Below are positions 4,482 to 19,284 of a stretch of 32,000 nucleotides of DNA, one piece after another. This DNA is from Elusimicrobiota bacterium (GTDB lineage Bacteria > Elusimicrobiota > Elusimicrobia > UBA1565 > UBA9628): the NCBI GenBank assembly GCA_027371715.1, contig DAHXMM010000020.1:1-32000 (forward strand), read 5' to 3'. A program made the position numbers and the translations under genes. Each line of letters begins with the position of its first letter. The stretch's first letter is position 1. The notes beneath the pieces were generated by a model. The model saw nothing but the letters and a program-made list of their open reading frames with translations. It was not told the DNA's origin and searched no databases.

Positions 4482-5110
4482 CATGAAAAAAAAAGGGACA
4501 GTCCCTTTTTCGGCCGCCCCACATGAGAATCCAGCCCCATTTTCTTTCTTGTCTCCAGCTCACATCCATCATCCACGATATATTTGTAAATCTCCACTCT
4601 CTTTTGGGAAAAGTCAGCCAAAGACAAATAAGCGGGGCTCTCTTCCAAAAAAGGGGACTGTCCCTTTTCTCCCAAATAAAAGCGATAACTGGACCAAGAA
4701 TAATCTTCCGGTTTCCGCGCGATGGCCGCGCGCACGGGATTTAACTCGATATAGCGGCCGCAAAGAAGAAGACTTCGGTCCGTCGGCAATAAAACGCTTT
4801 TATAGCGCCCCTGCCAGAGATGCCCCACCGAGGAATTTTTCTCTCGGAAATAATCGGAATACCCCTGTAAAAGCTTTTGCATCGCCTTGCTCAGGTCTTC
4901 CGGCTTTTGAACCTGGACCAAGAGATGAATATGGTTGGGCATCAGAACATAATGATGGATCCGAAAAGGATTTTTCACCTTGCTCCACCGCAGAATGTCC
5001 AAAAATCTCTCATAATCGGCTGTTTCATGGAACACGGCTTGACGATTATTCCCGCGCGCCATCAAGTGGTAAAACCCTCCTTCAATCAAATGTCTCCCGC
5101 ATCTTGACAT
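4475..5110 (-). CDS. REP-associated tyrosine transposase (RAYT; IS200-like Y1/HUH transposase, COG1943 type)
   Basis: 211-aa ORF with N-terminal GGFYHLMARGNNRQAVF, HUH motif in VLMPNHIHLLV and catalytic-Tyr region GRYIELNPVRA. SD GGGGAG (5118-5123, minus strand) lies 8 nt upstream of the ATG. Palindromic repeats sit on both sides. The last 12 codons run through the repeat at 4486-4510, and codons GEKGQSPF run through the repeat at 4647-4668. Confidence 0.9.
   Translation of the reverse strand: MSRCGRHLIEGGFYHLMARGNNRQAVFHETADYERFLDILRWSKVKNPFRIHHYVLMPNHIHLLVQVQKPEDLSKAMQKLLQGYSDYFREKNSSVGHLWQGRYKSVLLPTDRSLLLCGRYIELNPVRAAIARKPEDYSWSSYRFYLGEKGQSPFLEESPAYLSLADFSQKRVEIYKYIVDDGCELETRKKMGLDSHVGRPKKGLSLFFSCQ
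4486..4510. repeat. Palindrome copy, A/T-run-flanked subtype
   Basis: A9-GGGACAGTCCC-T5, core at 4495-4505, starting 14 nt after the surface-protein stop and inside the RAYT 3' end. Confidence 0.9.
4647..4668. repeat. Palindrome copy, A/T-run-flanked subtype, inside the RAYT CDS
   Basis: A6-G-GGGACTGTCCC-T4, core at 4654-4664. Confidence 0.85.
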
Positions 5111-5205: not shown

Positions 5206-6765
5206 TTGATTCTAAACAAAAAAGGGACAGTCCCTTTTTTCTTATTTCTACTTCTCTCCTCCATATCGGCATCGGCCGCGAGCTTCTATGCGGGTTCTCC
5301 CAACGAGATATTTCAATTCGGCGCGGATGCCAGGGCCATGGGCATGGGCAACGCCTACACCGCCATTGCCGGTGGAGCGTCTTCCCTTTATTACAACCCG
5401 GCGGGCCTCGGTCTTCTCAATGGCCCCGATGTCAGCGCCATGCAGGCCAGTCTTATTGGCGGCGCGGCCTATGAAGATTTATCCTACGCCCAAAATTTCT
5501 CAAAAATGCCGGGAGCTTGGGGCGTTGAAGCCCTCAATATGGGAGTGGGAGGGGCCGAGCAAAGAGACTCTCAAAATAATCTCACCGGAAGCTTTGGTTT
5601 TCAAGAAACCGGATACGGAGCGGGATTTGGCCTAAGGAATGTCGTCATTCCGAACTTATCCTTGGGAGGCTCTTTTCAGGGGCTCAGCCGAAGCTTGGGC
5701 GGTAGTTCTTCCGACATGCTCTATGGAGCGAATTTGGGAGCCCAGTACGGCCCCTTTTTGGACAATATGGTGACCGCGGGTTTGGTCCTCCAAAACGGTT
5801 TTAACGGAGCGCAAAATACCTTTGACCGGCTACCCACGGTTTTACGCGCAGGGCTCGCCGTCACTCCCATCAATAATCTTCTCATTTCCGCGGATTACGG
5901 CGATGATGGCGATTACGGAATCGGCGCGGAATATCGAATATGGATGTTCGCCATACGAGCCGGATATATCCCCCAAGGCCTCACCTTCGGCGCCGGAATC
6001 TATTATCAATCTCTGGAAGCCGATGTCGCGATGGTCAACGATCCAATTTTTGGAATGGGGGAGAGATTCTCGCTTAATTACCGATTCGCGGGAAAGAAGA
6101 AAGAAAAGCCTCTTGAAGCTTACACTAATAGTTATCTGGATGCCGCAAAAAAAGAATTAAGTCTCCGCAATTATCTCAGCGCGCAATTCGCGCTTGAAGA
6201 AGCGATGGGAGTCTCTCCCGCTCAGATTCCTCAGACATGGAAAGAAAAACTCAAACTTCTTCAAGCTTTTAATGGCAGCCTAGATCTCAAAAACCGTCCG
6301 GATGAGGTCAAAACTCTCCTTGCAAAAGATCAACCGGCCATACTCGCCCAAAAATCGGTTTTTTCTTATTTAAACGGACGCGACGGAGACGCCATGATTT
6401 GGGCGTCCGTGGCAGCCGGAACCGCTCATAAATCCATGCCCTATATTGACTTTGTCAAGACGATGGCTTATCTTACGAATATGAAGGTTTCGGAAGGGGA
6501 TTTATTGCCTCCACCAGATTATGTTTCCAAAAAAATGGAGACTGCTCTTCATGCTATTTATCAAAAGCGTTTTGCCAATGCGGTTAAAAATTGCCAACAG
6601 GCCATCGTGGTAAACCCGAAAGAGCCTTCTGCCTGGACGCGGCTGGGTAGCGCTTATTTTGCCTGGGGACATAAGGATGAAGCCAAAAAAGCCTATCAGA
6701 AAGCTTTAGAGCTTGATCCCAAGAACGAAAATTTAAAGAAATTTATGGAGATGTATATCAAATGA
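5206..6765 (+). CDS. Outer-membrane beta-barrel protein (PorV/PorQ- or UPF0164-like N-terminal motif) with C-terminal TPR domain
   Basis: In-frame TTG at 5206 gives MILNKKGTVPFFLFLLLSSISASAAS, a plausible signal peptide; the first in-frame ATG would remove it. GADARAMGMGNAYTAIAGGASSLYYNPAGLG resembles the conserved N-terminal motif of PorV-like/FadL-like barrels, followed by Gly/aromatic-rich beta-strand-like sequence. The C-terminus has TPR-like repeats (AWTRLGSAYFAWGHKDEAKKAYQKALELDPKN). The 760-aa ORF-track model (4483..) is an antisense-RAYT artefact at its 5' end. Confidence 0.7.
   Translation: MILNKKGTVPFFLFLLLSSISASAASFYAGSPNEIFQFGADARAMGMGNAYTAIAGGASSLYYNPAGLGLLNGPDVSAMQASLIGGAAYEDLSYAQNFSKMPGAWGVEALNMGVGGAEQRDSQNNLTGSFGFQETGYGAGFGLRNVVIPNLSLGGSFQGLSRSLGGSSSDMLYGANLGAQYGPFLDNMVTAGLVLQNGFNGAQNTFDRLPTVLRAGLAVTPINNLLISADYGDDGDYGIGAEYRIWMFAIRAGYIPQGLTFGAGIYYQSLEADVAMVNDPIFGMGERFSLNYRFAGKKKEKPLEAYTNSYLDAAKKELSLRNYLSAQFALEEAMGVSPAQIPQTWKEKLKLLQAFNGSLDLKNRPDEVKTLLAKDQPAILAQKSVFSYLNGRDGDAMIWASVAAGTAHKSMPYIDFVKTMAYLTNMKVSEGDLLPPPDYVSKKMETALHAIYQKRFANAVKNCQQAIVVNPKEPSAWTRLGSAYFAWGHKDEAKKAYQKALELDPKNENLKKFMEMYIK
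5218..5240. repeat. Palindrome copy, A/T-run-flanked subtype, overlapping the OMP signal-peptide codons
   Basis: A6-GGGACAGTCCC-T6, core at 5224-5234, read as KKGTVPFF. Confidence 0.9.
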
Positions 6766-6910
6766 AAGAAACGGAAAGTAAAAGAAAGTTACGGAAAGAA
6801 AATGAAAGAAACAGAAAAAGGCCTTACCTTGCTCTTCGTTCCTTTCTGTTGCTTTCCGTTACTTGCCGTTGCTTTCCGTTTCTTGCCGTTGCTCGCCGTT
6901 GCTGGAGGTT
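6761..6910. repeat. Phased 10-nt repeat array: six NNNGAAAGNN units followed by eight pyrimidine-rich units ending in (C/T/G)GTT, mutually complementary
   Basis: Units at 6761-6820: aatGAAAGaa, acgGAAAGta, aaaGAAAGtt, acgGAAAGaa, aatGAAAGaa, acaGAAAAag. Units at 6831-6910: gctcttcgtt, cctttctgtt, gctttccgtt, acttgccgtt, gctttccgtt, tcttgccgtt, gctcgccgtt, gctggaggtt. There is a perfect 13-nt inverted repeat: AAGAAACGGAAAG (6766-6778) versus CTTTCCGTTTCTT (6872-6884). Confidence 0.8.
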
Positions 6911-6913: not shown

Positions 6914-9430
6914 ATGGACATCTTAATGATCGTTTTTATTCCCAGTCTTTTTATCATCCTGGGAGCCCTAATGTTTATCGTCAGCCGGGTGATGGAATTC
7001 TCGCAATCCAATCGTTATTTCGCAAAACAAAGAGGAAACAGCCTTATGTTTACGCGTTTCATGACTCAAATTGCCATGGCCAAAAGCCAACTTGGAAAAA
7101 GAGCCCAGGAATTGGAAGCTCTGTCCATGCGCCTTCAAATGAATAACGAAGAACTTGCCCGGCTCAACAACCTCAAAATGAAATTCTTATCAATGGCGGT
7201 TCATGATATTCGAAATCCACTCACCGCTATTACCGGTTACAGCGACATTTTGTCTCGCAACAAAAATCTAGGACCCAAAGAGCAGGTTTTGTCAAAAATG
7301 ATTTTGACCGCGACCCGGCAAATCAACCATCTGATGGGAGATCTCACCGATCTCGCCGTCATCGAAGCGGGAAAATTTAAAATGGAAATGGCGCCCTTTG
7401 ATCTGGCCGGACTCATCCAGGAAGTAGGGGCCACTTTGACCCCGGGAGCCTCCAACAAAGGCGTCATTCTTTCTGTTCGAGAACCTCCGCCCGGAATTAT
7501 CATCACCGCCGACCGCTACCGCATTTGGCGCGTTTTGACGAATCTTTTGGGAAATGCCGTTAAATTTACCCCTTCTGGAGGACGCGTCGAACTCCGGGCC
7601 GAAGTCGCGGCGGGAATGGCCATGATTTCAGTCCAAGACAACGGCCCCGGGATTCACCCGACCGAACGGCGGAAAATTTTTGAAAAGTTCTACCAGTCAA
7701 AACACATCAAAGATGAAAAAGCCCGCAAGGGCGGCTGGGGATTGGGACTGGCCATCGCCCAAGAAATTGTTCAGTCCCACGGGGGAGAAATCGGAGTCGA
7801 CAGCCGTGGTCTCGGACACGGTTCTACTTTTTGGGTTCGCATTCCTCTTAAAGCCAAGCGCCCCATCCGCTCCAGCCCCATGCGTCTTGCGCTCGCTTTA
7901 ATCGGGTTTTTAGCGCTCTCTTTGGCGCCGAAAAAAACTCAGGCTCAAACTGTTCCCTTCCTTGAAAAATCAAAATTCGAAAAATCATTGGAAACCAAGG
8001 TGGACGGAGTCCTTCTCAATATCTTGGGGCCCAATCGAGCCAAAGTCATCATCAACGCGACCCTCAATTTCACAAAAACCGAAAGCTTTCAAACCGAAGG
8101 CGCCAGCATCACGACGACAAAAACCTCGGGGCTTCCGTATCTTTGGCAAGAACCCAGTAAAACGGCGCAACCCGAAGAGTTGCTACCGGGAGTGCCGCTT
8201 GATTCCGGCGGCCCGGCTCTTCCCACGCCGCCGCCATCCATCAAGGGCTATAAAAAAGAAGATTCCTTCCCCGCCGAATTTATCAAAAGATTAGACGTCA
8301 CTCTCATTTTGGATAATTCCGTCAAGGGAAACCGGAGCGCCGAAATCGGCAAAATTACGGCCGATCTTCTCAGTCTCAATCCTAAACGAGGAGATTCTCT
8401 GACCGTGGTCCACACCGAGTTTTCTCCGATCTGGAAAACCGTTTGGTACTCTCCGGAAACTGCCGGTATGCTTCTTAAATATATTTTAACCGGATTTCTC
8501 TTTTTTATGGCGCTCATCGTCATCGCCGTCGGATTTATCAAAATCGCCAACGCCATGCGCATGATGGCCAACGCACAATCCCAGCAAATCTCAATGGAAA
8601 TGAAGGGGCTTGATGGCGAGGGGGGAAATGGACCGGGCGGAGTTTTAGGACATAATACGCTCATGATTGGGGATCAGAAATCGGGAGAAAACGCCCCTGA
8701 AAACAAAAACGAACCGGTCATGTTTGACGTGCGAATGGACCAAGTAGAAACCCTGGCTCAAATGCTTCTCCCCGAACCACCTGAAAATGTCGCCATTGTT
8801 GCCTCGCGCTTGACTCCGGATGTTTCAAAAAGGCTCATCGACGCCCTCCCGCCGGAACTGGCGAGCGCGGTCGTCAGTCAACTCGCCCGCCCGCGCTTTA
8901 TCGATCCGGAAATTATCGTCAACTTAAAGGAAGAGTTAGAACGGCGTCTTTCCGGCGCGGTCGGAGGAGTGCATTATCTCGCGGAACTGATGTCGGCCGC
9001 CAGCCAAAAAAGGCGTCATGAAATGCTGGAAGCCGTTCGCTCTCAAAACCAAAACCTCGCCGAGGAACTCAGAAAACGAGTCTTTTTCATCGAGGATCTC
9101 TCAAAACTAACCCAACAAGAATGGTCGTATCTCTTGTCCTTGGTCACTTATCAAGAATGGAGCGCCGGTCTCCATGAGGGTCCCCAAGTCGTCGTTGAAG
9201 CCATCAAACAAAATGTCTCAGAAAAAGCCTGGGGGGTTCTCAGCGAGATGATTGAAGCGGCTTCTCCCACAACAGAACAAACAGAAACGGCGCAAGATAA
9301 AATCGGTCAAAGCGTCTCAGAACTCATCCGGGAACAAAGAATCAAAACCATTGCGCCGCAATTGGGACTTCAAATTCATGAATCTCCAGTTGAAGAAGAA
9401 AAAGGCGCGGAAAGTAGTAAGGGCTCGTGA
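6914..9430 (+). CDS. Three-TM fusion protein: histidine-kinase core (HisKA + HATPase_c), FliF-like periplasmic ring domain and FliG-like (middle + C-terminal) domain
   Basis: ATG 6914 is preceded by GGAGG (6904-6908). TM1 is MDILMIVFIPSLFIILGALMFIV. Kinase motifs: H-box AVHDIRNPL (His codon 7202-7204), N-box LLGNAVKF, DNGPGI, GWGLGLAI. TM2 is at 7880-7927. FliF-like motifs are LGPNRAKVIINATLNF, IKRLDVTLILD and RGDSLTVVHTEFS. TM3 is at 8468-8548. FliG-like motifs are EPPE, GGVHYLAEL, VFFIEDL and NVSEKAWGVLSE. There is no in-frame stop anywhere between the modules. Confidence 0.8.
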   Translation: MDILMIVFIPSLFIILGALMFIVSRVMEFSQSNRYFAKQRGNSLMFTRFMTQIAMAKSQLGKRAQELEALSMRLQMNNEELARLNNLKMKFLSMAVHDIRNPLTAITGYSDILSRNKNLGPKEQVLSKMILTATRQINHLMGDLTDLAVIEAGKFKMEMAPFDLAGLIQEVGATLTPGASNKGVILSVREPPPGIIITADRYRIWRVLTNLLGNAVKFTPSGGRVELRAEVAAGMAMISVQDNGPGIHPTERRKIFEKFYQSKHIKDEKARKGGWGLGLAIAQEIVQSHGGEIGVDSRGLGHGSTFWVRIPLKAKRPIRSSPMRLALALIGFLALSLAPKKTQAQTVPFLEKSKFEKSLETKVDGVLLNILGPNRAKVIINATLNFTKTESFQTEGASITTTKTSGLPYLWQEPSKTAQPEELLPGVPLDSGGPALPTPPPSIKGYKKEDSFPAEFIKRLDVTLILDNSVKGNRSAEIGKITADLLSLNPKRGDSLTVVHTEFSPIWKTVWYSPETAGMLLKYILTGFLFFMALIVIAVGFIKIANAMRMMANAQSQQISMEMKGLDGEGGNGPGGVLGHNTLMIGDQKSGENAPENKNEPVMFDVRMDQVETLAQMLLPEPPENVAIVASRLTPDVSKRLIDALPPELASAVVSQLARPRFIDPEIIVNLKEELERRLSGAVGGVHYLAELMSAASQKRRHEMLEAVRSQNQNLAEELRKRVFFIEDLSKLTQQEWSYLLSLVTYQEWSAGLHEGPQVVVEAIKQNVSEKAWGVLSEMIEAASPTTEQTETAQDKIGQSVSELIREQRIKTIAPQLGLQIHESPVEEEKGAESSKGS

Positions 9431-9498
9431 CAAAATAATAACAGTCTCTATTTACTTCGTCATTTCTTCATGATTCAATACCATTTTTGTTCTATCCT

Positions 9499-10443
9499 AT
9501 GGGTATGGCTGAAAGTCCGAAAGGTTCCATCTTTTCCTCCTTAAGGGCGCTGGAAGAAATTCCGGAAGAAACTCCCGCCGCGCCTCCGACTTCGCAAAAC
9601 CCTTCACCCTCTCCCACCCCCGCCGCACAAACACCAACGCCCACGCCGCCACCTTCGCAAGCGCCTCCTCCATCAGATGAGACTTTGAAAGCCGTGGAGT
9701 CAAAAATCGAAAAGTTAGAACAAAAAATCCAGGAGATGGGGACAGTCCCCAATTCAGACCCTCATCTTAACCGTATTGAAGCCCTGGAGCAAAAATTGCA
9801 ACAAATGCAGGAACGCGCCATTCAGGCGGAGGTCGCTCTCAGAGAGCGCGAGAAATCCCAAGAAGCCGCCCGGCGCGAGACGGAATCTCTTCTTCAAAAT
9901 TTAGCGTCCCAGCGCCGGCTTGAAGAATCGGACCGGCAAATGAAGGAAAATCTGGCTTATTGCCGACGCCGAATCGAAGAATTGGAGGAAAAACAATCCT
10001 CTATTAAAATTCCGGATACCCAACAATCGGAAAATGAGTTTAAATCCCTCCTAAAAAGTTTTATGGAACAGATCGAGCTAAAAACAACTCCGGTTTTAGC
10101 GTCTCTTGTTGATCTCAGGAAAGAAAATGAAAACCGCGAAAAAGAAAATCGCGGCATGGAGCAAAGGATAAACGAGATTGAGAAAAATATCAATTCTTTT
10201 TTTTCGACAGAGTTAGGGCAAGCGAGCGCTCTAGCAGAAGGATTACGCCACCTAAAACAAACCGTGGAACGAGTCAACACGGAAACCGCGGAAAAACTCG
10301 AAAAAATAAGCGCCGCTCTAAGCCTATTAGAATTTAGGCATTCCCAAGCGAAAAACACAACAGAAGAATTACGCGCTCTCGATAAAGACTTTCAGAAAAT
10401 ACTCTCCATTCTCGATGCCAGCGTTTCCAACTCGCCCAAATAA
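9499..10443 (+). CDS. Pro-rich N-terminus / long coiled-coil cytoplasmic protein, unknown function
   Basis: The ORF has heptad-like charged repeats (IEKLEQKIQE, IEALEQKLQQMQERAIQAE, RRRIEELEEKQ) and a PT/PS-rich tract (PSPSPTPAAQTPTPTPPPSQAPPPS). The start is ambiguous (ATG 9499 or 9505; the ORF-track start at 9487 is non-ATG). It contains an in-frame palindrome copy (EMGTVPNS). Confidence 0.7.
   Translation: MGMAESPKGSIFSSLRALEEIPEETPAAPPTSQNPSPSPTPAAQTPTPTPPPSQAPPPSDETLKAVESKIEKLEQKIQEMGTVPNSDPHLNRIEALEQKLQQMQERAIQAEVALREREKSQEAARRETESLLQNLASQRRLEESDRQMKENLAYCRRRIEELEEKQSSIKIPDTQQSENEFKSLLKSFMEQIELKTTPVLASLVDLRKENENREKENRGMEQRINEIEKNINSFFSTELGQASALAEGLRHLKQTVERVNTETAEKLEKISAALSLLEFRHSQAKNTTEELRALDKDFQKILSILDASVSNSPK
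9738..9754. repeat. Palindrome copy inside the coiled-coil CDS (read as MGTVPNS)
   Basis: gagatGGGGACAGTCCCCAATTca, perfect core at 9739-9749. Confidence 0.85.
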
Positions 10444-10444
10444 A

Positions 10445-10460
10445 GGGATAGTCCCTATTA
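10445..10460. repeat. Degenerate palindrome copy GGGATAGTCCC
   Basis: taaaGGGATAGTCCCTATTAg, starting 2 nt after the stop at 10441-10443. Confidence 0.6.
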
Positions 10461-10500
10461 GTATTTGGAATTCTCTTTTCTTTCCTATATAATAAGCAAC

Positions 10501-11238
10501 ATGGAACTAACATCGATCATCGGTCTAGGGGCTATTCTAATTTTAACTGCGATTGGCCTTGCCACTGGAGGGCTTCCGGCGGTTTTCATCAACTGGCATG
10601 GAATTGGAATCGTGCTTGGGGGAACTTTTTGCGCCCTCATGATCAACACCCCACTGGATATTTTGCTCAGAACCGGATCGTCTGTGACCGATTTAATTTC
10701 GGCCGATCCTTATGTCGACCGGATCGCTCTTGTGGACGCCATCATGACACTAGCACAAGAGGTTCAATCCCGGGGAATTAACGCCTTTAACAATGTCAAT
10801 AAAACAGTGGCCGCCGGGTATCTCGCTTACGCCGCTCAAATCGCGGTTGAATATAACAACCCTGAAACCCTCCGACAGGTGCTGGAAAATGAGATCATTC
10901 AAAATTCCGATTTACAGAACGAAGCGGTCAACGTTTTTAGAACCGCCGGAATTTTGGCGCCGATGTTCGGACTTTTGGGAACCTTAATTGGAATTGTCGA
11001 GGTTCTGCGCCAAATCGCCAACCCCGCACAAGTGGGTTCCGCCATGGCGGTCGCCATTACGACCGCTTTTTATGGCATCGCGACCGCAAACGTTTTTTGC
11101 GTGCCGATAGCCGGTAAACTAAGAATTCGCTACTGGAGAGAAACGCAGGCCAAGACCATGATTTTGGAAGGCGTCTTTGAAATCCTCCAGCGAACGCCCG
11201 CCGTCATTATCTCGCGGAAACTGAAATCTTATCTATGA
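10501..11238 (+). CDS. motA: MotA/PomA-family stator proton-channel subunit (MotA_ExbB family)
   Basis: MELTSIIGLGAILILTAIG...IVLGGTF N-terminal TM pair, a long cytoplasmic loop, then GILAPMFGLLGTLIGIVEVL and MAVAITTAFYGIATANVFCVPIAGKL, typical of MotA TM3/TM4. ATG 10501 is preferred over the ORF-track TTG 10465. Confidence 0.85.
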   Translation: MELTSIIGLGAILILTAIGLATGGLPAVFINWHGIGIVLGGTFCALMINTPLDILLRTGSSVTDLISADPYVDRIALVDAIMTLAQEVQSRGINAFNNVNKTVAAGYLAYAAQIAVEYNNPETLRQVLENEIIQNSDLQNEAVNVFRTAGILAPMFGLLGTLIGIVEVLRQIANPAQVGSAMAVAITTAFYGIATANVFCVPIAGKLRIRYWRETQAKTMILEGVFEILQRTPAVIISRKLKSYL

Positions 11239-11241
11239 ATG

Positions 11242-11262
11242 AATTGGGGACTGTCCCTAATT
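11242..11262. repeat. 21-nt palindrome copy between motA and motB
   Basis: AATTGGGGACTGTCCCTAATT, core at 11247-11257, 4 nt after the motA stop and 8 nt before the motB ATG. Confidence 0.9.
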
Positions 11263-11269
11263 ATTAATT

Positions 11270-11962
11270 ATGAGACGCTCAAGGCACGAAGACCTCGAAA
11301 ATCAGCTTGCGAAATCCGCCCAATGGGCCATTACCTATGGGGATTTCATGAGTTATCTCATGATTTTCTTTCTCATCATGTTTTCTTTCACGCTTTCAAA
11401 ATCCGGAGGGAAAACTACGGAAAACGTTAAGTATCAGGAATCCCTCATTAAAATTCAGAAGGTCTTTGGCGGGAAGGGAAGCTCCGTGGATTATGATCGC
11501 CTGATTAAGCGCGAAAAAGAAGAGTCCATGGTCACCCAACTTAAACAAGCTCTTGATAAAAAGGATTTGTCAAAATACGCGAAAATAGAAACCTGGGATA
11601 AAAAAATTCGACTCATCTTAGCCAGCGCGGTTCTTTTTGACTCCGGCCGAGCAAGCTTAGCCCCGCGATCGGAAAAAATTTTAGCCGCCGTCGCCCAACA
11701 ACTTAAAACCTTGGACAACCCGATTCAAATTGAAGGGCATACCGATAACGTTCCTATTAACGGCGGACGCTATAAATCCAATTGGGAACTTTCAATGGCG
11801 CGCGCCTACTCAGTTCTCGTTTTTTTTGAGAAACAAGGCATCGCGCCTCAACGTTTGTCCGCCATCGGCTACGGCCAATATCACCCCATCGCCGACAACA
11901 AAACGCCGGAAGGACGCGCTAAAAATCGTAGAATCGAGATAGATTTATTACGGACGGAATGA
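11270..11962 (+). CDS. motB: MotB-family stator subunit with OmpA-like peptidoglycan-binding domain
   Basis: N-terminal WAITYGDFMSYLMIFFLIMFS is a single TM with the conserved proton-binding Asp context (compare E. coli YADFMTAMMAFF). The C-terminal OmpA-like domain reads IQIEGHTDNVPI...SNWELSMARAYSVLVFF...IGYGQYHPIADNKTPEGRAKNRRIEI. Confidence 0.9.
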   Translation: MRRSRHEDLENQLAKSAQWAITYGDFMSYLMIFFLIMFSFTLSKSGGKTTENVKYQESLIKIQKVFGGKGSSVDYDRLIKREKEESMVTQLKQALDKKDLSKYAKIETWDKKIRLILASAVLFDSGRASLAPRSEKILAAVAQQLKTLDNPIQIEGHTDNVPINGGRYKSNWELSMARAYSVLVFFEKQGIAPQRLSAIGYGQYHPIADNKTPEGRAKNRRIEIDLLRTE

Positions 11963-11976
11963 AAGGGAGATCAAAA

Positions 11977-12999
11977 ATGAAAGAATTGTGGGCTATTCTC
12001 TGCACCATCCTAGTCTTGCCGGTCGCGGCTTTTTCAGCCGCCTCATCCGGAACGAATAATTCGAACACTGCCCCTTATCAAGGAGCCACGGCGCCGCATC
12101 CAAAACTTCCGCAAGATCCTTATCTCACGGCCCTTGACGACATCAAAAGCCCGATTCCCTCGGTTCGTTTGGCGGCAGTTCAAGTTTTAGCTCAAAACCG
12201 TAATCCTGCCTCCATCGCGCCTCTGACCCAAGCCCTTTCCGATAAAAACCCGGCGGTCTGCGCCGCCGCCATTCACGCCTTGGGTCTTTTAAGGGTTAAG
12301 GCCGTAGCTCCAAAAATCGCGCAACTTTTAGCCACCTCCCAAGCTTCCCAAGTCAGGCAAAACGCCGCCGTCGCCTTGGCTTATCTGGCCGATCCGGCGG
12401 CCATCCCCACCTTAATTTCCGCTATTTCCGATTCTCATCGAAGCGTTCGCTATGCGGCAATTAAAACCTTGGGCAGTCTCCACGCCCAGGCTGCATTACC
12501 GGCCCTCATTAACACGCTTAAAAGTTCAAACGCTAATATCCGAGAGACCGCCGCTGCGGCCCTGGGGCAAATTCAATCTCCAAAAGCCTCATCCGCCCTT
12601 GCCGCTTTAACGACCGACCCCAACATCCAAGTTCGAGAGGCCGCCGTCATCGCGCTTGGTTCAACCGGAGGCAAGACCGCCATCTCGCCCCTCCTCAAAG
12701 CGCTTAAGGATTCGAATTTTTCCGTCAGTCTTGATGCGGCCCGCTCTCTTTCAAAACTGGGAAATTTTAAGGGAAAAAGCGTCGCGCTCAAGGGATTGAG
12801 CCAAAAAAACTCCTTTCTCAGGCAAGAAGCCGTCACGGTTTTAGGAATGACCGGAGGGAAAAAAGCTCTCCTTGCGCTTGAAAAACTTTCTAAAAAAGAA
12901 AAAGATCCCGCGACGATTAGCCTCATTGGTTTTGCCGAAGCCCAAATCAAGGGACGCCTTGGAATAAGACCCACGCCTCCTCAATCGCGCAAAAAATGA
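11977..12999 (+). CDS. Secreted HEAT-repeat (PBS-lyase HEAT-like) protein
   Basis: ATG 11977 is preceded by GGGAGA (11965-11970). The signal peptide is MKELWAILCTILVLPVAAFSAASS. There are about 8 repeats of the type VRxxAAxALGxLxxxxAxxxLxxALxDxN. The stop overlaps the next start (ATGA at 12996-12999). Confidence 0.8.
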   Translation: MKELWAILCTILVLPVAAFSAASSGTNNSNTAPYQGATAPHPKLPQDPYLTALDDIKSPIPSVRLAAVQVLAQNRNPASIAPLTQALSDKNPAVCAAAIHALGLLRVKAVAPKIAQLLATSQASQVRQNAAVALAYLADPAAIPTLISAISDSHRSVRYAAIKTLGSLHAQAALPALINTLKSSNANIRETAAAALGQIQSPKASSALAALTTDPNIQVREAAVIALGSTGGKTAISPLLKALKDSNFSVSLDAARSLSKLGNFKGKSVALKGLSQKNSFLRQEAVTVLGMTGGKKALLALEKLSKKEKDPATISLIGFAEAQIKGRLGIRPTPPQSRKK

Positions 13000-15011
13000 G
13001 ACGCCTCTTCGGCCTTTTCTTTTCGCTGGCCTTAAGTTTTCTTTTTATCTTTCTTTATCGGCCAGCCATATTTGAACTCCAAGCCAACGATGTCTTTAAT
13101 AATCTGGAAAACTCTTGGCAGGATTTTCTTTTTCGCGTCAATAGAAATCACCTAAAGCACGGAGACCCTCGCATCATCATCGCGGCCATTGATGATCCCA
13201 CCCTTCATCAATACGGATACCCGCTTCCTAGAATAATTTATGCGAAGCTCTTAGATCGTCTTCACGAGTTAAAAGTCAAGACCGTGGCCTTCGACGTCCT
13301 TTTCGCGGACCCCCGAAAAGGAGATTCTGATTTAGCGCGCGCTCTAGGGAAATTTAATAAAAGCGTTCTCGCCTATGCTTATGATCAAAACAGTTCCGAA
13401 CATTTCGTTTTGCCCACGCGCCCGCTCTATCAAGCCGCAAAAAGACTTGGGTATGTCAATGTGGGAAATTGCATAGATCCTGATGGGCATATCCGAGAAT
13501 TTCAAATTTTTCAGTCTTCTTTTAAAAACCCAAAAACAAATTCGATGGGAGAAGCTCTCTCGGTTCCGACGCTCGCCTATTTTACAGGGCAACTCTTTGA
13601 AAAGACCACCGGCCTCGGCCCAACCGACGCGCATTTCTACATTAATTTTAGGCCGCCTACTTATGCCAACGATCAAGACGTGCTGTTCTCTTATCCCGTT
13701 TTTTCCATCGCCAAGATTTTAAGCAAAAACCTTCCGCAAAAAGAGAAAGATGCTTTAAAAGGAGCCTTAGTTCTTGTCGGCTCAACCGCCCTTTCCGCTT
13801 TCGATCATTATCCCTCGCCCTTTAGCGATGCCAGTCCCGGAGTCGAATATCACGCTAACATTCTGGACAATCTTCTTCATCGCAACTGGATGCGCCCCTT
13901 TTCGCCTTTTTATCAGATATTCATCATACTTTTGTTTATCTGGCTTCCCTTTTTTCTGAGACGCGCGCCGACGCAGTGGGAAACGTTTTCGGTTTTTGGG
14001 GTTTTCTTGGCCTGGCTTTGTTTTTGCGAATGGCAATTTTTGAAAGGAGTTCGCGTGGAATTCGTCCTACCCTCTGCCGCTCTTTTGACGTCTTTTGTCG
14101 GCGAAACTATCCATCAAGCCTTGACCGAGGGGCGGGAGAAAAAATTCATCAAGAACTTATTTACTCAATTTGTCTCTCCCGAAGTGGTTGAGGACCTCGC
14201 CAAAAACCCTGACAAAATTAAACTGGGGGGAGAAAAAAAAGACATGACGGTTCTTTTTTTGGACATCGCCCATTTTACCAGCATCTCAGAAAAAATGTCG
14301 CCGGAAGAACTCATCAAGTTTCTCAATCTCTATCTCTCGCGTTTGAGCCAAGTCATTTACGATTACGGCGGGGTCGTTGATAAATATATTGGAGACTCCA
14401 TCATGGCTTTTTGGAACGCTCCATTAGAAGTAAAATCCCATCGCATGAAGGCCTGCCTTGCGGCGTTATCCCTTCAAGACGCCGTTTTAGAACTCAACAA
14501 AAATCTGCCTTCAAGCATCCCACATCCACCTCAAGTGAGAATTGGAATCAATTCCGGCATTGTCACCGTGGGCCTTACTGGAAGCGAACATAAACTTCAA
14601 TATACCGTGATCGGAGATGAAGTTAATTTAGCCTCTCGCCTTGAAGGGGCCAATAAGTTTTTTAAATCGCAGACCATGATCAGCGAAGCCGTTTACGCCG
14701 AAGCCAAAGCGGAAATAGAGGCTCGGGAAATCGGGATTATCCGCGTTCTTGGGAAAGAAACCCCCATCAAGACTTATCAGATTCTGGCTCGAAAAGGAGC
14801 GCTTTCCCGCTCCTGGAAAACAGCCCTTCCGATTTACAATCAAGCGCTTCAAGACGTACGAAACAAGGAATACGTCAATGCCATCCATCTTTTTGAAACT
14901 TTCCTTAAAATTATTCCCAATGACGGAACCGCCTCATTTTATCTCTCCGCTTGTAAAAAAGCCCAAGAGAGCACTCCATGGGATGGAATTATTCATCTGA
15001 CCTCTAAATAA
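12996..15011 (+). CDS. CHASE2 sensor domain / class III adenylate (guanylate) cyclase with C-terminal TPR-like tail
   Basis: The N-terminal TM is followed by CHASE2-like IIIAAIDDPTLHQYGYPLPRIIYAKLLDRLHELKVKTVAFDVLFADP, then 3 TM helices. Cyclase motifs are MTVLFLDIAHFTSISE, VDKYIGDSIMAFWNAP and YTVIGDEVNLASRLEG. Confidence 0.9.
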   Translation: MRRLFGLFFSLALSFLFIFLYRPAIFELQANDVFNNLENSWQDFLFRVNRNHLKHGDPRIIIAAIDDPTLHQYGYPLPRIIYAKLLDRLHELKVKTVAFDVLFADPRKGDSDLARALGKFNKSVLAYAYDQNSSEHFVLPTRPLYQAAKRLGYVNVGNCIDPDGHIREFQIFQSSFKNPKTNSMGEALSVPTLAYFTGQLFEKTTGLGPTDAHFYINFRPPTYANDQDVLFSYPVFSIAKILSKNLPQKEKDALKGALVLVGSTALSAFDHYPSPFSDASPGVEYHANILDNLLHRNWMRPFSPFYQIFIILLFIWLPFFLRRAPTQWETFSVFGVFLAWLCFCEWQFLKGVRVEFVLPSAALLTSFVGETIHQALTEGREKKFIKNLFTQFVSPEVVEDLAKNPDKIKLGGEKKDMTVLFLDIAHFTSISEKMSPEELIKFLNLYLSRLSQVIYDYGGVVDKYIGDSIMAFWNAPLEVKSHRMKACLAALSLQDAVLELNKNLPSSIPHPPQVRIGINSGIVTVGLTGSEHKLQYTVIGDEVNLASRLEGANKFFKSQTMISEAVYAEAKAEIEAREIGIIRVLGKETPIKTYQILARKGALSRSWKTALPIYNQALQDVRNKEYVNAIHLFETFLKIIPNDGTASFYLSACKKAQESTPWDGIIHLTSK

Positions 15012-15018
15012 ACCCTGC

Positions 15019-15732
15019 ATGATTATATTCTGGCGCTTATTATTCGGGCATTTACTGGCGGATTTTACGCTCCAAACCAACGCCGTCAATCGTTGGAAAA
15101 GAAAAAATATTTTTGGGATGTTGTTTCATTGCGCCATGCACCCCGTTCTCTATGCGCTTTTGACCTATCCCTATCTCTCCCGTCCTTGGATTGAATGGAA
15201 AAGTTTTAGTTTGAATGGATGGGCCTGCATCCTCATCCTCTTCTTAGTTCATTGGATTGAGGATGAATGGCGGGTTTTTACTATTTTTAAATACCATACG
15301 CCCGACAATACGCTTTACTTTCTTTGGGATCAAGTCATTCACATCGCGCTTATTTTTGCGGTAGCGCCTCTTTTGGCCTTTTCCAACCCTTCCCAAGGGC
15401 TTATCCCCGAGAAATGGCCCGTCTTGGGATGCCTTTTTGTCCTCGCAACCCATTTCAGCGCCATTCTGATTTATTTTATCGAGCAAGACATTTTTGGCAA
15501 GCCTTTTCCAGGAACTTTCAAGAAATACGCGCTCATGGCTGAACGCCTGGGACTGGCCCTCTGTTTTCTCGCGCCCATTCATTTATGCTCCGTTTTAGTC
15601 TTGGCGTGGATTGGAATCATGACTTCACTCCGGTTTAAGAAACAAAATGAGTTTTCCTGGACCAGCTTCTTCATTGGTGCTCCTCTCGCCGGGCTTTGCG
15701 GTTTTCTCTCCAGAATCTTGTATTATCAATAG
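15019..15732 (+). CDS. Polytopic membrane protein, DUF3307-like
   Basis: N-terminal FGHLLADFTLQTNAVNRWK matches the H-x-x-x-DF-x-x-Q motif I associate with DUF3307. Multiple hydrophobic helices follow. It starts 7 nt after the cyclase stop. Confidence 0.6.
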   Translation: MIIFWRLLFGHLLADFTLQTNAVNRWKRKNIFGMLFHCAMHPVLYALLTYPYLSRPWIEWKSFSLNGWACILILFLVHWIEDEWRVFTIFKYHTPDNTLYFLWDQVIHIALIFAVAPLLAFSNPSQGLIPEKWPVLGCLFVLATHFSAILIYFIEQDIFGKPFPGTFKKYALMAERLGLALCFLAPIHLCSVLVLAWIGIMTSLRFKKQNEFSWTSFFIGAPLAGLCGFLSRILYYQ

Positions 15733-15780: not shown

Positions 15781-15801
15781 GACCTTAAGGTTCTAAGGAA
15801 A

Positions 15802-15817
15802 GGGACAGTCCCTAATT
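15802..15817. repeat. Palindrome copy GGGACAGTCCC + TAATT flank
   Basis: ggaaaGGGACAGTCCCTAATTatt, with a perfect core, 24 nt upstream of the thiolase ATG. Confidence 0.85.
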
Positions 15818-15836
15818 ATTTAAAGGAGGCATTTGT

Positions 15837-16982
15837 ATGGAAGAAGTTTTCATTCTCTCGGCCGCAAGAACGCCAATTGGTTCTCTTAACGGTTCTCTTG
15901 CCGCCTACAGCGCGCCGCAATTAGGCGGGAAAATTTTAGCCGAGGCCGTCAAAAGAGCCGGAATTTCCCCTGAAGCTCTAAGCGAAGTCATCATGGGAAA
16001 TGTGTTGTCCGGAGGAGTGGGTCAAGCGCCAGCCAGGCAAGCAATGATGGCGGCCCAATTTCCCATCTCGGTTGGAGCGACTACGGTCAATAAAGTTTGC
16101 GGTTCGGGCCTTAAGGCAGTCATGATGGCTTCTCAATCCATCGCCCTGGGCGAAGAAGACTACGCTGCGGCGGGGGGAATGGAATCCATGTCCCAATCTC
16201 CGTTCATGCTTGAAAAAGCTAGAGGCGGTTATCGCTATGGAAACGGAGTTTTGATTGATTCTATTTTAAAAGACGGTCTCATTGATCCCTATTCCAATTG
16301 GCATATGGGAGAATGCGGAGAGTTATGCGCGGAAACCCACGCCATCAGCCGTGAGATGCAGGACGCCCACGCCGCTGAAAGTTACGCAAGGGCTCTTAAA
16401 GCCCAGCAAAGCGGCGCTTTTACGGAGGAAATTTTCGCCATTGACGGAATCGCCTTGGATGAAGAACCAGGGCGAGGAAAACCGGAAAAAATCGCGCGTC
16501 TTAAACCCGCCTTTAAATCCGGTGGCACCATTACCGCGGCCAACGCTTCAAAACTCAATGACGGCGCCGCAGCTTTGGTTTTATCGAGCGCGAAAGGGGC
16601 CGCCGGAAAAAAACCCTTGGCCCGCATCGCGGGATGGACCACTTTTTCCCAAGAGCCTAAATGGTTTACCACCGCCCCCGCCGGAGCGATTGAAAAACTC
16701 CTTAAGAAAACGGGCTGGGCAAAAGAATCTGTCGATATTTTCGAAGTCAACGAAGCCTTTAGCGTAGTGGCTTTAGCCGTTCAGAAACTGGTAGGTCTTA
16801 ATCCGGAAAAAATCAATGTCAACGGCGGAGCTGTCGCTTTAGGACATCCCTTGGGGGCCAGCGGAGCGCGAATTTTGGTCACCCTCTTACACGCTCTCAA
16901 AGCGCGGCAAGGAAAACGCGGCATTGCGGCCATTTGTCTGGGAGGGGGAGAATCCGTTGCCGTCGCCATTGAAAGAATTTAA
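15837..16982 (+). CDS. Acetyl-CoA C-acetyltransferase (thiolase II)
   Basis: SD AAAGGAGG lies upstream. Motifs: SAARTPIGS, active-site Cys context VNKVCGSGLKAV, and C-terminal NGGAVALGHPLGASGARILVTLLHAL...CLGGGESVAVAIERI. Confidence 0.93.
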   Translation: MEEVFILSAARTPIGSLNGSLAAYSAPQLGGKILAEAVKRAGISPEALSEVIMGNVLSGGVGQAPARQAMMAAQFPISVGATTVNKVCGSGLKAVMMASQSIALGEEDYAAAGGMESMSQSPFMLEKARGGYRYGNGVLIDSILKDGLIDPYSNWHMGECGELCAETHAISREMQDAHAAESYARALKAQQSGAFTEEIFAIDGIALDEEPGRGKPEKIARLKPAFKSGGTITAANASKLNDGAAALVLSSAKGAAGKKPLARIAGWTTFSQEPKWFTTAPAGAIEKLLKKTGWAKESVDIFEVNEAFSVVALAVQKLVGLNPEKINVNGGAVALGHPLGASGARILVTLLHALKARQGKRGIAAICLGGGESVAVAIERI

Positions 16983-18459
16983 GCTCCCCAAAAAACTTTC
17001 TCTTTTTGATTTGAGGCTATTGGACGGCTCCGCTCGGGCCGTCTTAGACTCTTTGAGCGTAAACAAAATCAAAAGATCGCGCGCGATAGTCGAAAAGATT
17101 GCAGCCGGTCAAAAACCGGTCTACGGAATTAATACCGGTTTTGGGAGTCTCGCCTCTCAGAAAATCCCCAAAGAAAACCTACTCGAACTTCAAAAAAATC
17201 TCGTTCTCAGCCATGCCTGCGGGGTGGGGGAAATTTTAAGCGAAAAAGAAGCTCGGGCCATTTTGTTTTTACGGCTTAATGAACTTTCCCGGGGTTACTC
17301 AGGGGTCAGAATGAATCTTGTCGAACACATGATTCGGATTTTTAATTCCCCGGCTTCTCCGTTGATTCCTTCTCAAGGCTCTGTTGGCGCCAGCGGAGAT
17401 TTGGCGCCGCAAGCGCACATGGCGCTTCTTCTTTTGGGAGAGGGAAAGGCTTTTTTAAATGGAAAGCTTATGCCAAGCCGAAAAATTTTGCGCACGATTG
17501 GTCTTTCTCCCATTCAGCTGGAAGCGAAAGAAGGTCTTTCGCTCATTAATGGAACGCAAGCCATGCAAGCGGTTGGAGGGCTGGCCTTATCCTTGGCCTA
17601 TCGAGTTTTTGAGACAGCCCAAAAAACGGCGGCCCTCAGCCTTGAAGCCTTAACGGGAAGCCCGGTTCCCTTTGAAGATAGAATTCAAAGACTTAAACCC
17701 CATCCGGGCCAAATCGAGACCGGGCGAACGCTGACCCAAATTCTTAAAGACAGCCCCTTAAGAGAATCTCATCGCGCCAATGATCCGCGTGTTCAAGACC
17801 CTTATAGCCTTCGTTGTCTTCCGCAGGTTCACGGCGCGGTTTTAGACGCGCTTGAATTCGCCAGAAAAACCGTCGAGCGCGAAATGGCGAGCGTGACGGA
17901 CAACCCCCTGGTTTTTCCCGATGGAGAAATTATCTCAGCCGGCAATTTTCATGGTCAAGCTTTAAGCCTTGCCTTTGACTTTGCCAGTTTGGCGCTGACT
18001 TCGCTTGGAAACATGTCCGAGCGAAGAATCTTTCAACTCATTTTAGGTCAGGCCCCGCGTTTAAAACCCTTCTTAGCTCAAAGACCTGGACTTGAGTCCG
18101 GTTGGATGATCGCCCAAGTCGCGGCGGCGGCCTTGGCTTCCGAAAATAAGACTCTCGCTCATCCCTCTTCTTCAGACTCCATTCCCACTTCAGCCAATCA
18201 GGAAGATTTTGTCAGCATGGGGATGAACGCGGCTCTTAAACTTAAGCGCGTCGTTCAAAACGTTTCCCGCATTGTCGCCATTGAAATGCTCTGCGCGGCC
18301 TGCGCCGTTGAGTCTCACAAGCCCCTCAAGCCCGGAAAAGGAGTTCGCGATTTACTCAAGCGGCTCAACGCTCAATTAGACACCATGCCCAAAGAGCGCT
18401 CTTTATCCCCTGAAATCGAAAAAGCCCATCTTTTAATTTTAGATGGATATTTTGATTGA
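16957..18459 (+). CDS. hutH: Histidine ammonia-lyase (HAL/PAL aromatic amino-acid lyase family)
   Basis: VYGINTGFGSLA is present, and the MIO-forming Ala-Ser-Gly sits in SQGSVGASGDLAPQAHMAL. The start is uncertain. TTG 16957 lies 5 nt after GGGAGGGGGAG. Alternatives are ATG 16924 (59-nt overlap with thiolase) or TTG 16969. Confidence 0.88.
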   Translation: MPSPLKEFKLPKKLSLFDLRLLDGSARAVLDSLSVNKIKRSRAIVEKIAAGQKPVYGINTGFGSLASQKIPKENLLELQKNLVLSHACGVGEILSEKEARAILFLRLNELSRGYSGVRMNLVEHMIRIFNSPASPLIPSQGSVGASGDLAPQAHMALLLLGEGKAFLNGKLMPSRKILRTIGLSPIQLEAKEGLSLINGTQAMQAVGGLALSLAYRVFETAQKTAALSLEALTGSPVPFEDRIQRLKPHPGQIETGRTLTQILKDSPLRESHRANDPRVQDPYSLRCLPQVHGAVLDALEFARKTVEREMASVTDNPLVFPDGEIISAGNFHGQALSLAFDFASLALTSLGNMSERRIFQLILGQAPRLKPFLAQRPGLESGWMIAQVAAAALASENKTLAHPSSSDSIPTSANQEDFVSMGMNAALKLKRVVQNVSRIVAIEMLCAACAVESHKPLKPGKGVRDLLKRLNAQLDTMPKERSLSPEIEKAHLLILDGYFD

Positions 18460-18490
18460 CAAAGCCCTTAAACTTCTCTAAGATAAAACC

Positions 18491-19165: not shown

Positions 19166-19170
19166 AAAAT

Positions 19171-19242: not shown

Positions 19243-19251
19243 GACTTTTTG

Positions 19252-19280: not shown

Positions 19281-19284
19281 AACT
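19264..19284. repeat. 21-nt palindrome copy between tRNA-Val and the FAH gene
   Basis: AATTAGGGACTGTCCCTAACT, core at 19269-19279, 7 nt before ATG 19291. Confidence 0.9.

Follow-up and report, generated by a model that had tools for sequence, protein, structure and literature searches.

A natural FliF-FliG fusion encoded with a flagellar-type stator and a PorV-like barrel: a candidate flagellum-independent rotor-stator in Elusimicrobiota

What would a flagellar rotor element and its stator do at a locus that holds no other part of a flagellum? The question is raised by 32,000 nucleotides of DNA from an Elusimicrobiota bacterium (NCBI GenBank assembly GCA_027371715.1, contig DAHXMM010000020.1, positions 1 to 32,000 of the forward strand; hereafter the window), in which a histidine kinase (HK) is fused to FliF- and FliG-like domains (FliF′ and FliG′, together FliF′G′) and encoded upstream of MotA and MotB. 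An original prediction, made from the letters of the window, described seven plus-strand genes at 6914-15732 as one operon, and all seven were confirmed by gene calls and Pfam, together with their domain content and the gaps between them (68, 57, 31, 14, -4 and 7 nt, in order). Eight independent contigs contain the identical locus, among them one belonging to the metagenome-assembled genome GCA_021796015.1, and close relatives of the locus are labeled Elusimicrobia or Elusimicrobiota. The reading favored here, to which we give a probability of roughly 45%, is that the locus encodes a flagellum-independent rotor-stator coupled across the envelope to a surface-protein apparatus, represented upstream by a PorV-like outer-membrane barrel with a TPR tail (PorV-TPR) and a giant surface protein, and placed under two-component control. 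We rate it as a new kind of system assembled from known parts, with rotation and function predicted only.

The fusion protein matches the Pfam families HisKA (5.6e-13), HATPase_c (3.8e-27), YscJ_FliF_C (1.4e-5), FliG_M (8.8e-11, 42.3 bits) and FliG_C (1e-12, 48.7 bits). Both FliG scores are above their cut-offs, and the YscJ_FliF_C match is weak yet above threshold (26.0 bits versus 23.8). An AlphaFold model of the fusion built with 23 homologues (mean pLDDT 67, folded domains mostly 70-86) predicts three transmembrane segments (TM1 to TM3) in the order TM1, cytoplasmic kinase with dimerization/histidine phosphotransfer and catalytic domains, TM2, periplasmic FliF unit, TM3, disordered linker, FliG_M and FliG_C. 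Foldseek with the whole fusion protein returned kinase matches only, the best being HK853 and other kinases at E ~1e-15.

The periplasmic unit is predicted to fold as alpha-beta-beta, a disordered insert with a beta-hairpin, and alpha-beta. The family profile aligns it to FliF (PDB 9yh6, E 2.4e-5; Salmonella FliF 6scn, residues 240-285). Modeled alone, the domain reached a pLDDT of 70, and its best 18 Foldseek matches in the PDB were all FliF RBM3/collar (E 8.9e-7 to 8.4e-5, probability 1.00, TMq 0.48-0.56), with SpoIIIAG, PrgK and EscJ ranking next and only at E > 0.02. Flagellar FliF consists of RBM1, RBM2 and RBM3 with a collar between two transmembrane segments, and RBM1 and RBM2 surround the export gate. 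By model, profile and fold matches, RBM1 and RBM2 are absent from the fusion, and one RBM3 and collar unit lies between TM2 and TM3.

FliG′ aligns with Thermotoga maritima FliG (1lkv) at 1.1e-20, or at 1.5e-42 when the family profile is used, and its Gly-Gly linker is near-invariant (119-121 of 128 family sequences). FliG_N scored 22.5 bits, under the cut-off of 25, in a Pfam match that overlaps the M domain; the covalent link to FliF′ takes the place of this domain, which in flagella binds the FliF C-terminus. The FliM-docking motif EHPQR is degenerate, reading E-P-P-E in the window and E-D-P-A in the family consensus, and the position of Arg160 in the E. coli-anchored alignment is not Arg, an Arg a few residues away being common in the wider family. 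Sequence comparison and structure prediction show that, of FliF, the fusion carries only the part that forms the S-ring, linked covalently to the middle and C-terminal domains of FliG, which receive torque. Engineered FliF-FliG fusions still form rings (PMC10941966; PDB 8z4d). Two natural proteins of ~615 aa (P0187 and P0188, JGI/ENA) carry both FliM and FliG Pfam domains; the matches are weak and represent a different type of rotor-switch fusion.

MotA is 245 aa long, a PomA-like length, with a full cytoplasmic domain (MotA_ExbB 1.6e-22, Pfam). It matches solved stators end-to-end, among them C. sporogenes MotA and PomA (3e-26 to 1e-23), and TolQ and ExbB models score far lower. With E. coli MotA as the anchor of the alignment, equivalents of Pro173 and Pro222 are present in 37 of 37 family sequences. 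MotB contains a plug and an OmpA-type peptidoglycan-binding domain (MotB_plug 1.2e-9, OmpA 4.7e-22, Pfam) and aligns with solved MotB and PomB structures at 5e-32 to 1e-22. The transmembrane Asp (YGDFMS) and peptidoglycan anchor seen in MotB by the original prediction were borne out by these Pfam matches and by an Asp32 equivalent in 27/27 family MotB sequences. A survey of stators defines the flagellar type (FIT) by a full torque-generating domain, a plug and an expanded peptidoglycan-binding domain (PMC12505986), and by those criteria MotAB is, from its sequence, a flagellar-type stator in which the residues that ion-coupled rotation requires are retained. It is a distinct subfamily, since the equivalog cut-offs of the NCBIfam models named for MotA, MotB, PomA and MotCD were not reached (144 versus 237 bits, 178 versus 283 bits).

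Neighborhoods of related loci (cited by numbers prefixed L) were collected from exact-protein look-ups, a genome scan and a metagenome scan (49 loci), and were annotated with hidden Markov models (HMMs) of the locus proteins; because one peptide pattern alone served for the metagenome scan, that scan mainly sampled the Elusimicrobiota-type subfamily. No other flagellar gene was present among the large open reading frames scanned in the window. When MotA, MotB and 27 flagellar proteins of E. coli were searched against 0.95 Mb of loci with phmmer, only FliG-, MotA-, MotB- and CheY-like matches were obtained, and no homologue of the export apparatus, rod, hook, filament or FliM/FliN C-ring lay within 10 kb of 59 loci, in agreement with the original prediction that rotor and stator are encoded together without other flagellar genes nearby. 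An apparent FliI in L036 was rejected, being an F1-ATPase alpha/beta-family subunit with ATP-synt_ab_N and ATP-synt_ab_C domains. A FlbD gene stands directly before motA in one relative (L020, 15199-15420). FlbD is otherwise a flagellar stator-associated gene.

Could the locus nonetheless supply a divergent but conventional MS-ring and FliG to a true flagellum encoded elsewhere in the genome? The homology of FliF, FliG, MotA and MotB is unambiguous, and a survey of 219 Elusimicrobiota genomes found a complete flagellar gene set in a few of them (Uzun et al., 10.1101/2022.07.08.499144). That survey also reported that most free-living members of the phylum, including flagellum-less magnetotactic ones, carry numerous motAB, flbD and fliG homologues and che genes without flagellar structural genes. 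With RBM1/RBM2 and FliG_N absent, the FliM-binding motif degenerate, no flagellar gene within 10 kb of the 59 loci, and PorV-TPR, kinase and coiled coil as the constant partners, a conventional flagellum is very improbable. Compared with the flagellar motor, the locus shares the S-ring domain (RBM3 and collar), FliG_M/FliG_C with the Gly-Gly linker, MotA with its full cytoplasmic torque domain, MotB with plug, Asp and OmpA domain and, in L020, FlbD ahead of motAB, whereas it differs in the natural fusion of FliF to FliG and in the missing domains, genes and partners just listed. The authors of the survey called the role of these homologues enigmatic and "unclear" and raised a possible role in gliding (10.1101/2022.07.08.499144). 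Their data concern the same genes in the same phylum as KEGG-level counts only; no FliF-FliG or kinase fusion, PorV-TPR, giant protein or operon was recognized. A literature search yielded no description of the FliF′G′-MotAB-PorV architecture beyond this gene-count remark.

The composition of the conserved unit was read from non-redundant loci with enough flank (evaluable loci). PorV-TPR was found in 33 of 34, the kinase in 41 of 43 (fused in 10, otherwise a separate 313-aa gene), MotA in 36/38, MotB in 26/28 and the coiled-coil protein in 42/47. In the 20 fully evaluable loci, with at least 4.2 kb upstream and at least 4.7 kb downstream, the counts were 20 for PorV-TPR, 20 for the kinase, 19 each for MotA and MotB, and 18 for the coiled coil. 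The conserved unit is PorV-TPR, kinase (fused or separate), FliF′G′, coiled coil, MotA and MotB. Its order in the fused clade is PorV-TPR, HK-FliF′G′, coiled coil, MotA, MotB, and in the separate-kinase clade it is PorV-TPR, HK, MotA, FliF′G′, coiled coil, often a second coiled-coil paralogue, and MotB. Order differs between the clades and membership is kept, a pattern that favors linkage by function over inertia. Whether the gene order is conserved in any related genome was one of the tests on which the original prediction had staked itself, and dozens of distinct loci, at 29-93% identity, repeat the order of the core.

The coiled-coil protein had been likened to FliH by its position after FliF and FliG only, with no similarity seen by eye, an analogy that did not survive: Pfam, NCBIfam and phmmer show no FliH similarity, and FliH identity was rejected. 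It has no Pfam family and forms a family of its own, cytoplasmic, with a Pro-rich linker and the conserved N-terminal motif S-[IVLMF]-F-[SA]-x-[LIF]; orthologues of 286-634 aa lie directly 3′ of FliF′G′ in the 42 evaluable loci that have it, and a second paralogue frequently accompanies them. In its build, with a conserved peptide at the N-terminus, a flexible Pro-rich linker and a coiled coil, the protein resembles a docking module. A shorter second paralogue with the N-terminal motif [DG]S[LFV]FS.[IL]K precedes motB in L025, L035, L038, L041, L049 and L067.

More distant loci separate the core from its elaborations. L020 encodes a giant protein, PorV-TPR, a FliF′G′ extended by a C-terminal TPR, a coiled coil of 1091 aa, FlbD, MotA and MotB; L019 encodes sorting-domain proteins, two PorV proteins, PorV-TPR, FliF′G′-TPR and a Roadblock/LC7 protein. 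L070, whose close relatives are labeled Nitrospirae or Thermodesulfovibrionales, is a minimal operon limited to FliF′G′, MotA, MotB, an OmpA protein resembling MotB and a TPR protein. With a separate HMM, the distant L019, L020 and L074 were seen to keep full-length PorV-TPR. The recurring core is FliF′G′ with MotAB (except in L015 and L019, within 10 kb) and a TPR element in every sampled locus; the Elusimicrobiota type elaborates on it with a PorV barrel, a kinase, a coiled coil and giant cargo. A scan of a genome collection with the single fusion protein retrieved three close relatives only, and a search of 1.84 billion cluster representatives (50% identity clusters) with the FliF′G′ profile retrieved 447 proteins at E<=1e-30, of which the best 150 were mostly near-full-length, spanning FliF′ and FliG′ in 450-700 aa, plus truncated fragments.

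The same comparisons bear on the idea of a decaying, functionless relic of a lost flagellum, to which the survival of only a fragment of the flagellar gene set and a mostly non-flagellated phylum (10.1101/2022.07.08.499144) might be thought to point. Between the window and L012, L013 and L014, dN/dS is 0.04-0.05 for FliF′G′, 0.03-0.06 for MotA, 0.03 for MotB, 0.055-0.07 for PorV-TPR and 0.15 for the coiled-coil gene, at dS 0.8-1.4. The core genes are under purifying selection (0.03-0.07). Catalytic and structural residues are invariant, the family has 447 cluster representatives and synteny with the non-flagellar partners is kept. Selection and conservation refute the relic, the least probable of the alternatives weighed here.

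The cluster start at 6914 given by the original prediction was too narrow: PorV-TPR and a gene for a giant sorting-domain protein lie upstream. The window barrel matches NF033709 (PorV_fam) end-to-end at 2.4e-20 and 73.4 bits, below the cut-off of 90 bits, and TPR_1 at 2e-14. Orthologues in L010 (161 bits), L044 (158), L035 (148) and L020 (136.5) exceed that cut-off, and those in L007, L017 and L074 (77-84) fall below it. From these scores the window protein is taken as a homologue of the PorV/PorQ family, in a divergent subfamily with an added TPR tail. Its probable start is the TTG at 5206, which restores the signal peptide MILNKKGTVPFFLFLLLSSISASAAS and gives 519 aa, matching orthologue length; the automated start, ATG 5338, cuts this peptide off. 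Since an outer-membrane barrel has both its ends in the periplasm, the TPR tail should be periplasmic as well.

The giant gene runs off the 5′ end of the window; the full-length protein, in contig L002, has 2491 aa. The fragment contains FlgD_ig (1.7e-6), fn3 and Ig-like domains (Pfam). Against the type-A sorting-domain model for type IX secretion systems (T9SS), TIGR04183 (cut-off 23), its last 100 residues score 29.8 bits and the whole fragment 22.0; eight other giant proteins preceding PorV-TPR score 28.4-42.1 bits, so that all nine C-termini tested pass, and the L007 protein scores 34 bits. The C-terminal pattern YPNPF...KVSKGIY...KIGV.H ends the giant proteins of 6/8 kinase-fused loci with enough flank, several others and L074. 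A giant gene precedes PorV-TPR in 8/8 kinase-fused loci with enough upstream sequence; others occur in some separate-kinase loci (L052, L053, L059) and in the distant L020 (8833 aa) and L074 (9602 aa), the range being 2491 to 9602 aa. With PorV-TPR and the giant sorting-domain protein upstream, the likely role shifts from pure signaling towards a surface-protein apparatus. Of the original proposal, a ring or motor serving signaling or envelope work in place of a flagellum, the non-flagellar rotor-stator stands and a purely signaling role becomes less likely.

A PorV/PorQ-family barrel directly after a giant type-A sorting-domain protein (compare SprB and the barrel SprF), a motor in the same cluster that is ion-driven and, by homology, belongs to the 5:2 class, and two-component control at the motor (compare PorXY) are shared with the T9SS and gliding machinery of Bacteroidota. 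The differences are that the motor is MotAB with a FliF/FliG ring and not GldLM/PorLM, that the barrel has a TPR tail, that SprA/Sov, PorK/N, PorU and PorZ are missing from the loci, and that the hosts are Elusimicrobiota, with the core also in Nitrospirota-labeled relatives, outside the Fibrobacteres-Chlorobi-Bacteroidetes (FCB) group in which T9SS has been described. FGE-sulfatase proteins in four loci (L008 899-1963, L010 2072-2935, L037 and L041) have PorK/GldK as their best NCBIfam match (1e-26). GldK identity is unsupported, at 94 bits against a cut-off of 350, with EgtB and PvdO scoring similarly.

There is precedent for an ion-driven motor coupled to a giant adhesin, as GldLM drives SprB movement and type IX secretion (PMC8986121). 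In Salmonella pathogenicity island 4 (SPI-4), SiiA and SiiB, MotAB-like proton-channel proteins, are encoded together with the giant adhesin SiiE, which requires them in order to function (10.1101/641415). The present locus likewise encodes MotAB-like proteins with a giant surface protein, but SiiAB assist type I secretion, and no FliF/FliG-like ring, PorV-like barrel or kinase is found there. The Myxococcus Agl-Glt system shares a 5:2-class ion-driven motor, TPR and outer-membrane proteins, cytoplasmic coiled-coil regulators and, through L019, a Roadblock/LC7 protein; it differs in that its motor is TolQR-like with a condensed cytoplasmic domain, and it has neither a FliG-like partner nor a ring-forming FliF domain. 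The L019 gene is MglB-like and lies downstream of FliF′G′ at 15798-16145.

In the mechanism proposed, FliF′G′ would assemble as an inner-membrane ring crowned on its cytoplasmic side by FliG torque domains, and peptidoglycan-anchored MotAB units would turn or load that ring using ion-motive force. Through its periplasmic TPR tail, the PorV-like barrel would connect the motor, by way of the S-ring or MotB, to the outer membrane, and the barrel would bind the sorting domain of the giant surface protein, so that ion-motive force would be spent on moving, deploying or exporting that protein. The result would be a gliding-like or type-IX-like apparatus in which a flagellar rotor-stator substitutes for GldLM/PorLM. 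Local control or reporting of the state of the motor would fall to the kinase and to single-domain response regulators nearby. The fused kinase would be present at about one copy per ring subunit, and ring assembly or the state of the motor could switch it; another possibility is that it feeds neighboring single-domain receivers, which could act on the motor as CheY does. In the lineage of the window, the periplasmic HEAT protein, the CHASE2 cyclase and DUF3307 may add a cyclic-nucleotide branch. The narrower claim of an undescribed envelope-spanning rotary machine, in which an S-ring with FliG, driven by MotAB and lacking export or axial parts, carries a kinase within its rotor and powers the movement or export of giant sorting-domain proteins through the PorV-like barrel, is held more tentatively, at odds of about one in three.

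Several observations weigh against this reading. Each of its functional steps is drawn from gene context. The reference charges of the torque helix, E. coli FliG K264, R281, D288, D289 and R297, matched to MotA R90/E98, are kept only in part, as judged from the alignments. In the FliG′ family, Lys occupies position 281 in 35/49 sequences; at position 288, 37 have Gln and 11 have Glu; position 289 is Ser, Thr or Met, and position 297 is non-basic. In the window, 281 is Lys and 288 is Glu, but 289 is not acidic and 297 is not Arg. Family MotA has Arg at position 90 in 29/37 sequences, Arg or Lys at 92 in 33/37 and Glu or Asp at 99 in 28/37, and the clade of the window has Gln at 90, Arg at 92 and Asn at 98 and 99. 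Clean charge covariation between MotA and FliG′ was looked for in the family alignments and not found. No SprA/Sov, PorK/PorN, PorL/PorM (GldL/GldM), PorU or PorZ was detected in the loci, and a periplasm-spanning shaft or translocon is not encoded there. Many separate-kinase loci are without a giant gene, the Nitrospirota-type core (L070) has neither PorV nor a giant protein, and L015 and L019, with ample flanks, have no MotAB nearby. TPR proteins, PflA and PflB, scaffold stators in Campylobacter motors. The TPR tail could likewise scaffold stators instead of linking the motor to the outer membrane.

Some of these points would suit a static or Tol-Pal-like system, in which MotAB energizes an outer-membrane-linked TPR protein for envelope integrity, tethering or division, and the FliF′G′ ring is an assembly platform. 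The L070-type operon, with its MotB-like OmpA and TPR genes, recalls tolQ-tolR-...-pal-cpoB, its TPR protein gives weak YbgF, BamD and PilW matches, and the torque-helix charges are canonical only in part. However, we know of no role for the FliG C-terminal domain except receiving torque, and the link to giant sorting-domain proteins would go unexplained. MotA is moreover of the flagellar type, with the full torque-generating domain, and not of the condensed TolQ/ExbB type (PMC12505986). Such a system is improbable, at something like one chance in eight.

The kinase speaks for a different output. It has a phospho-acceptor His and intact N, G1 and G2 boxes, motifs kept in 13/13 fused homologues, and neither a periplasmic nor a cytoplasmic sensor domain was detected by Pfam, family alignment or fold search. 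The locus may instead be a signaling device, in which ring and stators sense ion-motive force, envelope load or surface contact and the output is phosphorylation by the kinase (here also a cyclic nucleotide), with no mechanical work. Flagellar stators are reportedly load sensors, which counts for this view, as do the sensor-less kinase fused or adjacent to the ring protein in 41/43 loci, the response regulators that cluster by most loci, and the apparently translationally coupled cyclase of the window. Yet a ring-forming rotor with a full stator would be a costly sensor, the PorV-TPR partner and the giant sorting-domain proteins would be left unexplained, a kinase is missing from the minimal Nitrospirota-type operon and from the L020/L074 type, and the cyclase is restricted to three close relatives. 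We regard a signaling device as unlikely, though the strongest of the competing explanations, and prefer the rotor-stator coupled to a surface-protein apparatus. In the separate-kinase clade, eight loci (L008, L023, L025, L026, L033, L035, L038 and L041) have a second kinase (~465 aa) and 2-4 receivers directly upstream of PorV-TPR, an arrangement that suggests a dedicated multi-component phosphorelay; one receiver there has 337-344 aa and a C-terminal half without an assigned family. The only response regulator in the window is a stand-alone receiver of 125 aa (26411-26788, minus strand; Response_reg 2.4e-22) between the genes for ValRS and a PIN-PhoH protein, whereas in relatives receivers directly adjoin the motor cluster.

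The genes that follow motB belong to one lineage. The HEAT protein has a signal peptide and matches HEAT_2 at 1.4e-58; the cyclase matches CHASE2 (4e-42, 145 bits) and Guanylate_cyc (6.4e-24, 85 bits), as expected for a CHASE2 class III enzyme, with metal-binding Asp residues read from LFLDIAHFT and YIGDS and a Lys/Asp specificity pair suggesting ATP as substrate; and the polytopic membrane protein matches DUF3307 (PF11750, 2.2e-13). The three appear translationally coupled in the window (4-nt overlap, 7- and 14-nt gaps). They were found only in the window, L012 (93% identity) and L013 (86% identity), and are a recent, lineage-specific add-on outside the conserved core. The original description of a motor bracketed by a kinase and a cyclase holds for the kinase, fused or adjacent in 41 of 43 evaluable loci, and fails for the cyclase, present in these three loci only.

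A cyclase beside a polytopic DUF3307 protein superficially resembles a defense pair of cyclase and transmembrane effector, and an anti-phage function of the Zorya type or as a Pycsar-like cyclase-effector pair was considered, since PADLOC matches MotB to ZorB models (3e-22) and the cyclase to PycC models (2e-25). These matches reflect generic OmpA/MotB and class III cyclase homology. Zorya identity was rejected, as MotA matches no ZorA model and neither ZorC/D nor nuclease genes are present; the original note had already set Zorya aside on the normal length of MotA and the lack of ZorC/D-type genes. Pycsar identity was rejected as well, DUF3307 having no cyclic-nucleotide-binding domain. The cluster is syntenic with housekeeping-type envelope genes and vertically conserved, and a defense role is very improbable.

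Table 1. Coordinates of the genes and encoded domains of the locus in the window
Feature	Position	Strand	Basis or remark
Giant secreted/surface protein, C-terminal part of ~1490 aa	1-4481	+	Runs off window 5′ end; sorting domain ~4206-4466
PorV/PorQ-family outer-membrane beta-barrel with C-terminal TPR	5206-6765	+	NF033709, TPR_1; first conserved core gene
HK-FliF′-FliG′ fusion gene	6914-9430	+	Gene call and Pfam
Kinase core	7175-7852	+	HisKA residues 88-153 (H-box HDIRNPL), HATPase_c residues 200-313 (N, G1, G2 boxes)
FliF-like RBM3 and beta-collar (S-ring) domain	7952-8413	+	Residues 347-500; profile versus PDB, Foldseek
FliG_M and FliG_C	8747-9343	+	Residues 612-682 and 707-810; Gly-Gly linker, torque-helix region
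Coiled-coil gene	9499-10443	+	Gene call
MotA gene	10501-11238	+	Gene call and Pfam
MotB gene	11270-11962	+	Gene call and Pfam
HEAT-repeat gene	11977-12999	+	Gene call and Pfam
CHASE2 cyclase gene	12996-15011	+	Gene call and Pfam
DUF3307 gene	15019-15732	+	Gene call and Pfam

Repeats and a mobile-element gene are interspersed with the cluster. A Y1-type (REP-associated, IS200-like) tyrosine transposase is encoded at 4475-5110 (minus strand) between the giant gene and the PorV-TPR gene, and a short palindrome, (A)GGGACAGTCCC(T), is scattered nearby (4489, 4648, 5181, 5218, 9733, 10444, 11242 and 15801). Copies occupy the gaps between the coiled-coil gene and motA and between motA and motB, as well as the end of the DUF3307 gene, and two copies encode the KKGTVPF string that opens the PorV-TPR signal peptide. 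A longer 18-nt version of the pattern has 8 matches versus 0.03 expected by chance. The same palindrome occurs in L012 and L013, but in other gaps. Before the kinase gene, at 6760-6903, about three purine-rich 20-nt repeats (GAAAGAAACGGAAAG) are followed by ~3.6 pyrimidine-rich complement copies; a long hairpin results from their folding (-55.5 kcal/mol, z -5.8) and stops just 5′ of the kinase GGAGG/ATG. The hairpin was rejected as a part of the system, the gap in L012-L014 holding REP palindromes or the purine arm alone. An Rfam scan of the window gave no riboswitch or leader, a tRNA being the sole match. Downstream of the cluster, 15837-22142 is an apparently unrelated block for aromatic amino-acid catabolism (thiolase, aromatic/histidine ammonia-lyase, FAA hydrolase, a weak HgmA_N or homogentisate dioxygenase-like match, and flavin reductase), in which a small MscS-type transmembrane protein (18491-19165) and the tRNA (19171-19242, minus strand) are embedded.

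FliG and flagellar-type MotAB have been regarded as specialists in turning flagella, and the stator survey takes flagellar function as the definition of this class (PMC12505986). In Elusimicrobiota and Nitrospirota-labeled relatives, the pair that generates torque is here conserved with no flagellum. If the ring turns, it would be a new kind of bacterial rotary machine and a candidate motility or secretion apparatus for phyla with unexplained movement, including flagellum-less magnetotactic Elusimicrobiota. The rotor-tethered kinase suggests a new coupling of two-component signaling to a motor. As a natural minimal rotor-stator, the locus lends itself to structural and biophysical work, and it makes testable whether an S-ring/FliG/stator module works independently of the type III secretion core. 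If the reading is true, the FliF S-ring, FliG and MotAB would form an autonomous module, either a co-opted remnant or a surviving pre-flagellar rotor, with a bearing on how the flagellar motor evolved.

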